Of a DNA stretch of 64,000 nt, positions 38,809-51,391 are shown in pieces (position 1 is the stretch's first letter; the number at the start of each line of letters is the position of its first letter). Location of the stretch: sequence record OR544954. One strand, 5' to 3'. This DNA comes from Escherichia phage vB_EcoM_EP32a. The notes beneath the pieces were generated by a model that did not search any database, was not told the DNA's origin, and was given only the letters and a program-made list of their open reading frames with translations. The position numbers were made by a program, and so were the translations under genes.

Positions 38809-39063
38809 ATGATTTTACGTTTTATTAATTCATATGGCACCACAATTTTTGAAATGAAAAATCCTACCGAACTGGATATCCCTTCGCCGAATAGTGAAAT
38901 CACAGTTAAAGGTGAACGATTCATTTGCTATTCACACGAACGAATTTATGAATATCGTGAATTTTGTGGTGGTTACGGTATAGAAAAAGAACCGTTGGTT
39001 TATTTCGATATCACGGTCTTGACTCCTAAAGAATATGAAGAAATTATTGCTGAGGATAATTAA
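38809..39063 (+). CDS. hypothetical protein (84 aa)
   Basis: ORF between td and nrdA. Confidence 0.5.
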   Translation: MILRFINSYGTTIFEMKNPTELDIPSPNSEITVKGERFICYSHERIYEYREFCGGYGIEKEPLVYFDITVLTPKEYEEIIAEDN

Positions 39064-48205: not shown

Positions 48206-49198
48206 ATGTTACCTGTCATCAGAAAACTTATTTCTCCAAAAGAACTGGCTGAGATTATTCCTTTGTCGGAAGCTTACGCATCACAAGTGGCTTCTCATCG
48301 CGAACAAGTTAATTCGATTATGAACGGTGAAGACTCACGCAAACTTATTGTTGTAGGTCCTTGTTCAATTCATGACCCTATTGCTGCTGTTGAATACGGC
48401 AAACGTCTGGCTGAACTTCAAACTCGTCTTCCTAATGTTCTGTTAGTGATGCGCGTTTATTTTGAAAAGCCTCGAACTACCGTAGGTTGGAAAGGTCTTG
48501 TAAATGATCCATATCTTGACGGAAGTTTTGATATGAACCACGGTCTTATAGTTGCACGAACATTGTGTCGTAAACTTCTACGTATGGGACTTCCATTAGC
48601 AACTGAAGTATTAGACCCATTCACGATTAAGTATCTTTCTGGTATTTTCTCATGGGTTGCTATTGGCGCCCGTACGACTGAAAGTCAGACACATCGTGAA
48701 ATTGCTTCAGGTCTACCGATGTGCGTAGGCTTCAAGAACGCAACCAATGGTTCTATTAAAGTAGCTACAGACGCGATGTATAGTGCCGCCTGGCCTCATC
48801 GGTATATGGGTATGGACGTCGATGGTACTGTAGGCATTGTTGAAGCTGAAGGTAATCAGAATACGCATATCGTATTGCGTGGCGGGACCAACGGCCCGAA
48901 CTATCATTCTTCTGATATTCAAGAAGCTTCTAACAAAGCAAGGGCAGTAGGTCTGAATCATTATGTAATGGTTGACTGTAGCCATGCAAACGCTGATGGG
49001 CATTATAGCAATCAAATCGGTATTGGTAAAAATTTAGCAGCTAATGATTTGGTCAAAGGAATTATGATAGAATCGTTCCTACATGAAGGAAATCAAAAAA
49101 TTTCTGATAATATGTCCTATGGCGTTTCCGTTACCGATGCGTGCATCAGTTGGGAACAAACTAAAGAGCTGTTAACTTATATTAATAAGGTTCAATAA
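48206..49198 (+). CDS. 3-deoxy-D-arabino-heptulosonate-7-phosphate (DAHP) synthase, class I (AroG/AroF/AroH-like)
   Basis: 330 aa; motifs LIVVGPCSIHDP, MRVYFEKPRTTVGWKGL, IGARTTESQTHRE, VGFKNATNGS, ILRGG, DCSHANA, ESFLHEGNQ, VTDACISWE align with recalled E. coli AroG incl. metal ligands Cys/His/Glu/Asp; SD TAAGGA. Confidence 0.85.
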   Translation: MLPVIRKLISPKELAEIIPLSEAYASQVASHREQVNSIMNGEDSRKLIVVGPCSIHDPIAAVEYGKRLAELQTRLPNVLLVMRVYFEKPRTTVGWKGLVNDPYLDGSFDMNHGLIVARTLCRKLLRMGLPLATEVLDPFTIKYLSGIFSWVAIGARTTESQTHREIASGLPMCVGFKNATNGSIKVATDAMYSAAWPHRYMGMDVDGTVGIVEAEGNQNTHIVLRGGTNGPNYHSSDIQEASNKARAVGLNHYVMVDCSHANADGHYSNQIGIGKNLAANDLVKGIMIESFLHEGNQKISDNMSYGVSVTDACISWEQTKELLTYINKVQ

Positions 49199-50461: not shown

Positions 50462-50577
50462 ACTATATGAAGAGAACACTCTTCTAAGCGGTAGCCTACA
50501 ACTGAGAGACTTGTCGAAAGAAGGTGAAATTCAGACGAACGTGGCTACTAAATATTATCTCGAATTGAGAATTTAAA

Positions 50578-50826
50578 ATGATTAAACAATTACAACACGC
50601 TCTTGAACTGCAACGAAACGCATGGAATAACGGTCACGAAAACTACGGCGCGTCGATTGATGTTGAAGCCGAAGCACTTGAAATCCTGCATTATTTCAAA
50701 CATCTGAACCCGGTACAGGCAGCTTTGGCCTCTGAACTGGAAGCAAAAGATGAACTGAAATATGCTAAGCCTTTGGCTTCTGCAGCTCGTAAAGCAGTAC
50801 GTCATTTTGTTATTACCCTTAAATAA
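50578..50826 (+). CDS. hypothetical protein (82 aa)
   Basis: ORF followed by about 300 bp of non-coding sequence. Confidence 0.45.
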   Translation: MIKQLQHALELQRNAWNNGHENYGASIDVEAEALEILHYFKHLNPVQAALASELEAKDELKYAKPLASAARKAVRHFVITLK

Positions 50827-51123
50827 GTTTTAGGTGATTCGCTACCTTAAGTGCGGCTAGAAAATCGAGGAGCCGTCGAACTGTCTGATTAATGATTTGC
50901 GAATCATTATAGTTTTAAGACCCCGGCAGTTTTACGGTGTACCTCTTGAATGTATTTTGTACTATCACGCGTCAGAAAAAGGTTATCTGTCTAAGTCGTG
51001 GTTGGTATGATGACGGGTTTATGGTTATCCTGTCGTTAAATATCCAAAACCTATGTTCCCCTTTGAGGGCTTTCGCAGGCAATGTCAATAAGTCCTGCAT
51101 TTTCATTTAAAAGAGAATTTATA

Positions 51124-51303
51124 ATGGCAAAACAAGCTAAAGCAAAGAAAGCAGTTGAAAAGAAAGTTGATGGTACCTCTAAACGCGCTGGATACAAGCG
51201 TGGGTCGAACTCTCGTATTAATCAAACAGTTGAGAAGATCATGCGCAGAGCACGTGCAGTTCTTCGAGATGATGCTTCTCGTTTTGGAAAGGTTGTTGCA
51301 TAA
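51124..51303 (+). CDS. hypothetical small basic protein (59 aa; start uncertain)
   Basis: Lys/Arg-rich ORF; alternative in-frame ATG at 51082; followed by hairpin terminator. Confidence 0.4.
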   Translation: MAKQAKAKKAVEKKVDGTSKRAGYKRGSNSRINQTVEKIMRRARAVLRDDASRFGKVVA

Positions 51304-51308
51304 TTTTA

Positions 51309-51332
51309 GGGAGACTTCGGTCTCCCTTTTGT
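51309..51332 (+). terminator. intrinsic terminator
   Basis: GGGAGAC-TTCG-GTCTCCC followed by TTTT; identical hairpin to the one at 36309. Confidence 0.75.
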
Positions 51333-51362: not shown

Positions 51363-51391
51363 GTTTACTCTCCTGTAGGATGTGTTACTAT
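51363..51391 (+). promoter_or_regulatory. T4-type early promoter (GTTTAC-N17-TACTAT)
   Basis: -35/-10 pair upstream of ORF 51434. Confidence 0.5.

Follow-up and report, generated by a model that had tools for sequence, protein, structure and literature searches.

A conserved gene-free gap between rIII and 30.9 of T4-like phages holds plus-strand RNA modules, two of which resemble type III antitoxins

What occupies the gene-free gap between rIII and 30.9 in a T4-like phage? The question arises from a 64,000-nucleotide (nt) stretch of Escherichia phage vB_EcoM_EP32a (sequence record OR544954), called the window throughout; the phage is a T4-like member of the genus Mosigvirus and shares 99.5% identity with vB_EcoM_G53 in this region. 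An earlier note, drawn from the letters alone, had singled out positions 50827-51123 of the window as free of open reading frames (ORFs) and had suggested a small RNA, an origin or regulatory region, or a decayed gene. Those limits proved exact: rIII ends in a stop codon at 50824-50826, and the 30.9 start common to relatives lies at 51124, leaving a gap of 297 bases with no credible ORF. We propose, as a rather probable reading of the sequence, that the gap is a plus-strand string of independently folding RNA modules, including at least two single-copy mimics of type III antitoxins: module A of ToxI, which inhibits the endoribonuclease ToxN, and module D of TenpI, which inhibits TenpN. Because the RNA modules are conserved and two of them are close to ToxI and TenpI antitoxins, the gap probably serves as an RNA counter-defence locus and is unlikely to be junk or a dead gene.

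A rIII-30.9 gap of 120-420 nt is found in almost all members of the Tevenvirinae that we fetched. Identities between the window and relatives were as follows.

Window versus T4: aligned gap 96.6%; rIII 85.9% (third positions 67.5%); 30.9 92.1%.
Window versus a VR20/VR26-type phage: aligned gap 96.6%; rIII 85.5%; 30.9 70.8%.
Window versus Salmonella phage STML-198: aligned gap 87.5%; rIII 70.6%; 30.9 79.2%.

Conservation of the gap exceeds that of both flanking genes and of the third codon positions of rIII, far beyond chance; the gap is non-neutral sequence under strong purifying selection. Comparison of its folding with homologues, a check that the earlier note had proposed, revealed compensatory base changes consistent with a plus-strand RNA, including G-U pairs that would be A-C on the opposite strand. 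The suggestion of a small or regulatory RNA thus gained support from conserved modules and from covariation possible on the plus strand only. In the window, the modules are ordered A, B, G, D, E, F, and they are shuffled, lost and gained among Tevenvirinae genera: the T4 gap lacks G, the RB69 gap lacks A, STML-198 lacks G and the inner part of B, and the order in Yersinia phage TG1 is E-D-A-G'. Such turnover between genera is as expected of an accessory counter-defence locus. We observed strand, covariation, purifying selection and modular gain and loss directly, as we did the resemblance to antitoxin repeats described below.

We searched the gap by blastn against 5,426 complete Escherichia coli genomes and 72,556 plasmids. 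Only gap nt 1-44 matched, at 2-13 places per plasmid (E = 4e-5 to 2e-3). All plasmid matches lay directly upstream of type III toxin genes, annotated ToxN/AbiQ, on enterobacterial plasmids, among them pECA1039, the original ToxIN plasmid. The places matched are tandem arrays in which AGGTGATTTGCTACCTTTAAGTGCAGCTAGAAATTT recurs every 36 nt, with a terminator behind them; this is the ToxI antitoxin in its canonical form. The matching unit of the gap comprises:

50832-50866, plus strand: module A, a single ToxI-like unit ('pseudo-ToxI'), AGGTGATTCGCTACCTTAAGTGCGGCTAGAAAATC, recognized by blastn and pseudoknot covariation.
50833-50836 (GGTG) with 50843-50846 (TACC): module A pseudoknot stem 1.
50840-50842 (CGC) with 50853-50855 (GCG): module A pseudoknot stem 2.

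A 24-nt core of module A is identical to repeat 3 upstream of toxN on the E. coli plasmid pU90-1, and 33 of the 35 positions of module A, counted by eye, are identical to a ToxI unit of a Klebsiella plasmid. Local alignment of module A with the ToxI repeat scored 59.5. ToxI is a hairpin-type pseudoknot with two stems of 3-4 bp and short loops (PMC3401426, whose stem definitions we used), and we scored both stems in 18 phage and plasmid units. Pairing held in 95.1% of cells, with 13 compensatory cells; 0 of 500 shuffles were as good, and slid controls gave 33-58%. The compensatory variants were CGC:GCG, CAC:GTG, AGC:GCU and AGUG:UACU. AAAU motifs, candidates for the ToxN cleavage sites that release a ToxI unit, occur at 50821-50824 and 50862-50865; the exact GAAAU is absent.

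The form of module A in T4, T2 and T6 (ATTCACTGCC...GAGCTAAAT; locus L004, 898-934, and L012) recalls what we take to be the type I-F repeat of CRISPR (clustered regularly interspaced short palindromic repeats), GTTCACTGCCGTACAGGCAGCTTAGAAA. A ToxI dimer query matched 250 phage records, in which the ToxI-like units are single; most are T4-like phages of Klebsiella and Escherichia, and several unrelated families are included. Salmonella phage SE131 (L215, 1205-1243) and Escherichia phage FH3 (L216, 1206-1243), both unrelated to T4-like phages, each carry a single near-perfect ToxI unit in a 3' untranslated region (UTR), just before an intrinsic terminator; GAAAU borders the SE131 unit at either end.

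The second antitoxin-like element, module D, was present in 44 of the 44 distinct rIII-30.9 gaps examined. Its parts in the window are:

51005-51063, plus strand: module D, a TenpI-like H-type pseudoknot ('pseudo-TenpI'), recognized by a pair test and covariance model R1.
51012-51017 (GACGGG) with 51029-51034 (CCTGTC): module D stem P1.
51023-51026 (GGTT) with 51048-51051 (AACC): module D stem P2.
51035-51047: module D A-rich linker, GTTAAATATCCAA.

In this fold, CGT(T/A)AA and the A-rich linker come directly after stem 1, and the loop pairs with the segment after the linker. Across 26 phage sequences, 85.8% of cells were paired compared with 70% in shuffles (0 of 500 as good), and both stems covaried. 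A 2025 survey describes TenpI antitoxins as H-type pseudoknots of ~39-57 nt with a conserved A stretch after stem 1 (PMC12283969). We located the tenpIN locus of Yersinia pseudotuberculosis p_153kb via the TenpN accession from that survey, found plasmid TenpN homologues by tblastn, and read their upstream regions. Each plasmid region upstream of a TenpN homologue held two repeats and then a terminator, and these repeats share with module D their architecture, size and GTGG...ATCCCCACGT(A/T)AAAAACCCAAA. When the module D of one phage (L040), GATGTGGTCGTTGTAGGTTATCCCCACGTAAAACACCCGAAACCTTC, was set against an example plasmid repeat, TTGTGGCGGTAGGAACATCCCCACGTTAAAAACCCAAATTCCTG, stem 1 was the same and the linker nearly so; stem 2 was in the same register with its bases swapped, AGGAA/TTCCT in TenpI versus AGGTT/AACCT in the phage.

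We built covariance model R1 from phage module D sequences alone and searched 154 kb of plasmid DNA with it. The five best matches were all TenpI repeats, at 25.3 bits (E = 1.1e-4), 20.8 (1.9e-3), 17.7 (0.015), 15.2 (0.075) and 13.1 (0.29), and the best background match reached 11.9 bits. The matches at E = 1.1e-4, 1.9e-3 and 0.015 belong to the TenpI repeats of Enterobacter hormaechei, Enterobacter cloacae and Escherichia marmotae. R1 scored module D of the window at 67.7 bits, as a single copy in the whole window; a second match at 38959-39005, inside an ORF of 84 amino acids (aa), was judged chance. Searches by plain sequence were negative: blastn of module D and of the concatenated masked gaps against the E. 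coli genomes and plasmids gave no match, and an exact-pattern scan of bacterial genomes for module D gave chance matches only, one of them in a Photorhabdus prophage gene.

Among known systems, the Pectobacterium phage PhiTE (Blower et al. 2012, PMC3475682) carries a pseudo-ToxI that, like module A, is intergenic and resembles the 36-nt ToxI repeat; it is transcribed with phage genes and was proposed to hold ToxN inactive (PMC3475682). Module A resembles genuine ToxI units at least as well as the PhiTE element does. PhiTE has 1.5 repeats, and its escape requires expansion or the capture of a real ToxI, whereas module A is one unit. Unlike the PhiTE element, module A is fixed at a conserved locus across several Tevenvirinae genera, has compensatory changes that differ by lineage and is surrounded by other RNA modules. 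With ToxI of ToxIN (Pectobacterium atrosepticum pECA1039; ColE1-type plasmids of E. coli and Klebsiella) it shares unit length, sequence, both stems and the GCUAGAAA 3' tail. Unlike ToxI loci, it has no tandem array (genuine arrays have 1.9-5.6 repeats), no adjacent toxN and no dedicated promoter, and its 5' AAAU site is displaced by ~5 nt. Its 3' flank reads GAAAAU versus GAAAU, which we take to be the E. coli ToxN site. The single copy and the lack of toxN argue that module A is a mimic rather than a toxin-antitoxin (TA) system.

TenpI of TenpIN (Blower 2012 NAR; Nadig et al. 2025, PMC12283969) is, like module D, an H-type pseudoknot of ~50 nt with an A-rich linker straight after stem 1. In both, the loop pairs with the segment beyond the A stretch to make stem 2, a terminator-like hairpin follows further downstream, and the motifs GTGG / ATCCCCAC-GT(A/T)AAA-A-CC-AAA occur. 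Unlike TenpI loci, which have about two repeats, a terminator and tenpN, module D is single copy and has no tenpN. Two caveats attach to the copy in the window: its stem 1 is GACGG/CTGTC versus GTGG/CCAC in TenpI, and its stem 2 is just 4 bp. Similarity to the Yersinia TenpI falls below detection by the model. The T4 proteins TifA, a ToxN inhibitor, and Dmd, an antitoxin mimic directed at RnlA/LsoA, match the gap RNAs in phage family, in the class of defence countered, namely toxin endoribonucleases set free once the host is shut off, and in the logic of a substitute inhibitor; unlike the gap RNAs, they are proteins encoded elsewhere in the genome. The TifA papers (including PMC9391042) make no mention of a ToxI-like RNA, rIII or 30.9.

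How might such RNAs act? We propose that plus-strand transcription from the rIII promoters would run through rIII, the gap and 30.9 together; since the array starts directly after the rIII stop codon, the simplest view is that it forms the 3' UTR of the rIII message. Upon shut-off of host transcription by the phage, the labile host antitoxin RNA would decay and the toxin would be freed. The phage transcript would then provide look-alike pseudoknots, possibly trimmed at the flanking A-rich AAAU-type sites, and these ToxI- and TenpI-like pseudoknots would occupy ToxN-family endoribonucleases and keep them inactive, so that infection would not be aborted. A terminal hairpin with a U tract (module F) and a hairpin over the 30.9 ribosome-binding site, both described below, would probably meter read-through and translation of 30.9. 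The array may reach the required expression level, be processed, bind toxin and protect the phage in this way. Precedents and parallels exist: PhiTE escapes ToxIN through its intergenic pseudo-ToxI (PMC3475682), TenpIN and ToxIN abort coliphage infection (PMC3401426), and ToxIN restricts T-even phages (PMC9391042).

Several observations weigh against this proposal. T2, T4 and T6 carry module A yet are strongly restricted by plasmid-borne E. coli toxIN (PMC9391042), and RB69 is the phage least affected by toxIN in the same study although it has no module A; module A as the cause of RB69's low toxIN sensitivity is thereby refuted. The module A of T2, T4 and T6 is more diverged, with an A-G mismatch in stem 1, and may be a degenerate copy. 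One PhiTE pseudo-ToxI repeat gave no rescue from over-expressed ToxN, and escape took 4.5-5.5 repeats (PMC3475682); the phages examined here carry one copy. On the TenpI side, the repeat of E. coli pZ1323 is weak under R1 (E = 0.29), and R1 misses the Yersinia plasmid repeats with or without filters. A loose pseudoknot descriptor finds both Yersinia repeats but is equally frequent in shuffled DNA, and plain local alignment of the Yersinia TenpI with phage loci scores 35 versus a background of 32. Furthermore, modules B, G, E and F, ~60% of the gap, have no counterpart in the plasmids or E. coli genomes searched. Given the restriction of T2, T4 and T6, the lack of module A in RB69 and the insufficiency of a single repeat, at most a dose-dependent or variant-specific effect can be claimed.

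The remainder of the gap, up to and including 30.9, consists of the following features, where SD stands for Shine-Dalgarno.

50867-50945, plus strand: module B, a long branched hairpin with a GAGG...CCTC closing stem, containing a hairpin at 50890-50909; predicted by RNAalifold.
50946-50953, plus strand: conserved linker TTGAATGT 3' of module B, invariant among module B carriers.
50964-51002, plus strand: module G, a hairpin with an ATCACG/CGTGGT outer stem, a CAGA/TCTG inner stem and a AAAAGGTTA loop; from presence/absence and covariation.
51058-51073, plus strand: module E, a small CCC-loop-GGG hairpin followed by CTT(G/T); from stem variants.
51075-51098, plus strand: module F, a terminal GCAGG/CCTGC hairpin with conserved CAATAAG in its loop, followed by a U-rich tract; from covariation.
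51099-51118, plus strand: anti-SD/SD hairpin, ATTTTC:GAGAAT, over the 30.9 ribosome-binding site; from RNAfold and many homologues.
51124-51303, plus strand: gene 30.9, 59 aa, highly basic; PHROG 1427 (function unknown), with start and adjacency conserved.

The hairpin inside module B, TAATGATT-TGCG-AATCATTA, is the one quoted in the earlier note as an example of local stem-loops. It is real, and its pairing is kept in L026 via the compensatory TATCGATT/AATCGGTA; the folding energy of the whole gap, by contrast, is ordinary (z = -1.1 on the plus strand and -1.7 on the minus strand). The RNAalifold consensus for module B contains 5 compensated pairs, with variants in L026 and STML-198. Module G is placed elsewhere in other genera and has a compensatory CAGC/GCTG in L028 and L011. 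The stem of module E, which lies 5' of module D in other genera, varies among gaps as CCC/GGG, CCTC/GAGG and GCT/AGC. Module F has a compensatory ACTGG/CCAGT in STML-198 and L025 and a G-U pair in VR26, and different strong hairpins with a U tract take its spot in other genera; it resembles a terminator- or attenuator-like element, placed as the terminator is in type III TA operons. In every lineage, the SD region of 30.9 pairs with a short upstream segment (TTTTC/GAGAA, CTCC/GGA(A)G or CCTC/GAGG). As a separate observation, window positions 50912-50926 in module B (TTTAAGACCCCGGCA) resemble the lead-in to the terminator of tenpIN on a plasmid from E. marmotae (TTAAAGACCCTGACA, L221, ~270-285), which may be chance or the trace of a captured operon.

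It is possible, and we hold this only tentatively, that the gap is primarily a cis-acting leader controlling 30.9: a structured 5' UTR with an attenuator (hairpin F and the U tract) and the anti-SD/SD hairpin. The 30.9 protein may then bind pseudoknot D in the style of ribosomal proteins or T4 gene 32, and the antitoxin likeness would be incidental or historical. This would account for 30.9 lying directly downstream at nearly every array-bearing locus (L049, L050 and TG1 differ), for a ribosome-binding site always sequestered by a covarying upstream complement, for the strong hairpin and U-rich tract that always precede the sequestering segment, and for a pseudoknot D that is universal where module A is optional. 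Autoregulation by way of a pseudoknot has a precedent in T4 gene 32 (PMC3014915), whose leader pseudoknot is, like module D, a conserved H-type fold in an untranslated part of a T-even early/middle mRNA, followed by A/U-rich sequence. However, the gene 32 element is fixed in its own leader and binds its own product, whereas module D is unrelated to it in sequence and shifts relative to both neighbouring genes: its distance is 0-180 nt to the rIII stop and 60-250 nt to the 30.9 start, and the order of modules around it varies, which is odd for a fixed operator. A leader also leaves unexplained the near base-for-base match of module A to ToxI and the picking of TenpI repeats by a model of phage module D alone, and the cassette persists in L049 and L050 without 30.9. 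A leader or attenuator role for 30.9 is compatible with antitoxin mimicry, and both may coexist.

All sampled T4-like array loci have rIII on the 5' side and a 30.9-like ORF on the 3' side, the sole exception being the transplanted cassette of L049 and L050. In L049 (1296-1631; also L050), the phage is rich in tRNA genes (12 within 3 kb) and has no intact rIII or 30.9; an A-B-D-E-F cassette, together with the last 38 rIII codons, is lodged between its tRNA-Gly and tRNA-Gln genes. The cassette is bounded by a 13-bp direct repeat, TTTATTGGAGATT, overlapping the 5' end of tRNA-Gln, and the arrangement looks like integration of a circular intermediate. A phage with rIII and without 30.9 (L045, 1725-1800) lacks RNA modules, its rIII being followed simply by a terminator and an early promoter, and a phage with a 30.9-like gene but without rIII (L089, 1100-1200) is also without RNA modules.

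Antitoxin mimicry could also be one part of something broader. We raise as a speculative and rather doubtful extension that the whole rIII-30.9 region is a modular RNA anti-defence island whose shuffled modules would each act as decoy towards a separate host immune system under RNA control. This would span modules A, D, B, G, E and F together with module C and hairpin H of other genera; other type III TA families, or further toxins inhibited by RNA, could be among the targets, and the basic 30.9 protein may act together with the array RNAs.

Module C is a ~150-nt multi-stem RNA in the same gap of many Tevenvirinae, including many Klebsiella-type phages, and is not in the window. Its loci (L031, 1855-2015; L006, 720-875; L008, 727-882; and 12 others) share an invariant GCTAACGGTGTGCAACAGATA segment; 20 of its 43 predicted pairs have a compensatory change, and it has no Rfam match. 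Module H is a conserved hairpin (GGTAGCC...GTCGAAAGAAG...GGCTACT) at 50490-50549 of the window, between gene 31 and rIII; its homologue is the terminal hairpin inside the rIII-30.9 gap in eight other Tevenvirinae loci, with a compensatory CCGA/TCGG versus CTGA/TCAG.

That the modules are relics, or part of a phage-borne TA-like cassette with 30.9 as its toxin, strikes us as quite improbable. The succession of RNA repeats, terminator-like hairpin and small ORF does mirror the layout of a type III operon (PMC12283969), some type III loci have truncated toxins of 45-101 aa (PMC3401426), and a genuine ToxI was acquired by PhiTE through recombination (PMC3475682). However, constraint on the gap is stronger than on its neighbouring genes, which argues against the relic form; both pseudoknots show compensatory substitutions inside phage lineages, which relics would not keep; and the 30.9 protein has no Pfam, NCBIfam or PDB relative and no detectable similarity to TenpN.

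That the gap is a decayed protein gene, or acts at the level of DNA, for instance as a replication origin or recombination cassette, is barely credible: a 37-aa ORF is annotated here in G53 and an 'ori type 2 repeat' nearby in ATK47, and the modular shuffling recalls the recombination cassettes of T4-type genomes, but there is no conserved ORF, the indels are not multiples of three, the G-U pairs would be A-C on the other strand, the gap motifs are unique within the 64-kb window (no dispersed repeats), and GC skew and composition are unremarkable. The largest ORFs of the gap, of 37 and 57 aa, have TTG/GTG starts in a region with 4-11 stops in each frame of both strands. Neither matched a PHROG family, and indels of 1 nt and 4 nt in close relatives fall inside them, the 1-base indels breaking them in 98%-identical relatives; a coding role was rejected on these grounds. 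The decayed gene suggested by the earlier note was discarded because there is no protein-family signal, every frame is broken by indels and the gap is conserved above synonymous sites. Nothing in the analysis supports an origin, and the gap is not locally GC-richer as had been claimed (GC 0.39-0.43 versus 0.33-0.46 nearby). The earlier reader had been unable to fold a tRNA, and ARAGORN likewise found 0 tRNA/tmRNA genes in the window. An Rfam scan, also proposed there, found no Rfam 15 family, whether riboswitch (such as preQ1), known sRNA, CRISPR repeat or intron, at gathering score anywhere in the window or at ten related loci, with only noise at E<=10 in the gap and at those loci. No sigma-70-like promoter was reported within the gap; a TTGAAT-17-TATGGT promoter-like match, seen by eye in T4 only, was set aside as its spacing is not conserved in the window or STML-198.

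The surroundings of the gap are all on the plus strand, in the order 3-deoxy-7-phosphoheptulonate (DAHP) synthase homologue, cd, 31.1, 31, rIII, gap, 30.9, terminator and early promoter for 30.8. The features next to the gap are:

50578-50826, plus strand: rIII (lysis-inhibition accessory protein), an ORF annotated rIII in near-identical phages.
51309-51330, plus strand: intrinsic terminator closing the unit of rIII, RNA array and 30.9, from the sequence; annotated as a terminator in ATK47 and G53.
51363-51391: early promoter for 30.8, 3' of the 51309-51330 terminator.

In the GenBank records of T4 and T6, 30.9 begins at an upstream ATG (window position 51082; L004, 1097-1138), giving 72 aa. 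This ATG sits within hairpin F and is out of frame in STML-198, and the conserved start is therefore 51124, with a 59-aa product. Further upstream, just 5' of cd, positions 48206-49198 encode a full-length AroG-like DAHP synthase homologue of 330 aa. As an auxiliary metabolic gene it is unusual in a T4-like coliphage, and it is also annotated in ATK47.

We found no description of a ToxI- or TenpI-like RNA in T-even phages in the open-access literature, where T-even mimics of type III antitoxins look undescribed. A 2010 review of T4 post-transcriptional control (PMC3014915) gives the gene 32 pseudoknot as the sole such element and does not mention rIII or 30.9. A 2017 paper states that PhiTE 'remains the only phage' known to escape by RNA antitoxin mimicry, and the 2025 tenpIN survey (PMC12283969) reports tenpN genes in viruses and no TenpI mimics.

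RNA mimicry of a type III antitoxin has PhiTE as its one described case. If our proposal is true, the best-studied phage family would carry such mimics at a fixed, strongly conserved locus, one transcript would join mimics of two antitoxin families, and module D would be the first TenpI mimic. This would add an RNA layer to T4 counter-defence beside TifA and Dmd, make it possible to address directly which phages evade ToxIN and TenpIN, and open a route from the other modules to host defences under RNA control. If the region is an anti-defence island as well, modules B, G, E, F, C and H would point to host defence RNAs not yet recognised. Overall, long conserved gene-free gaps in dense phage genomes would be worth screening against host antitoxin RNAs.

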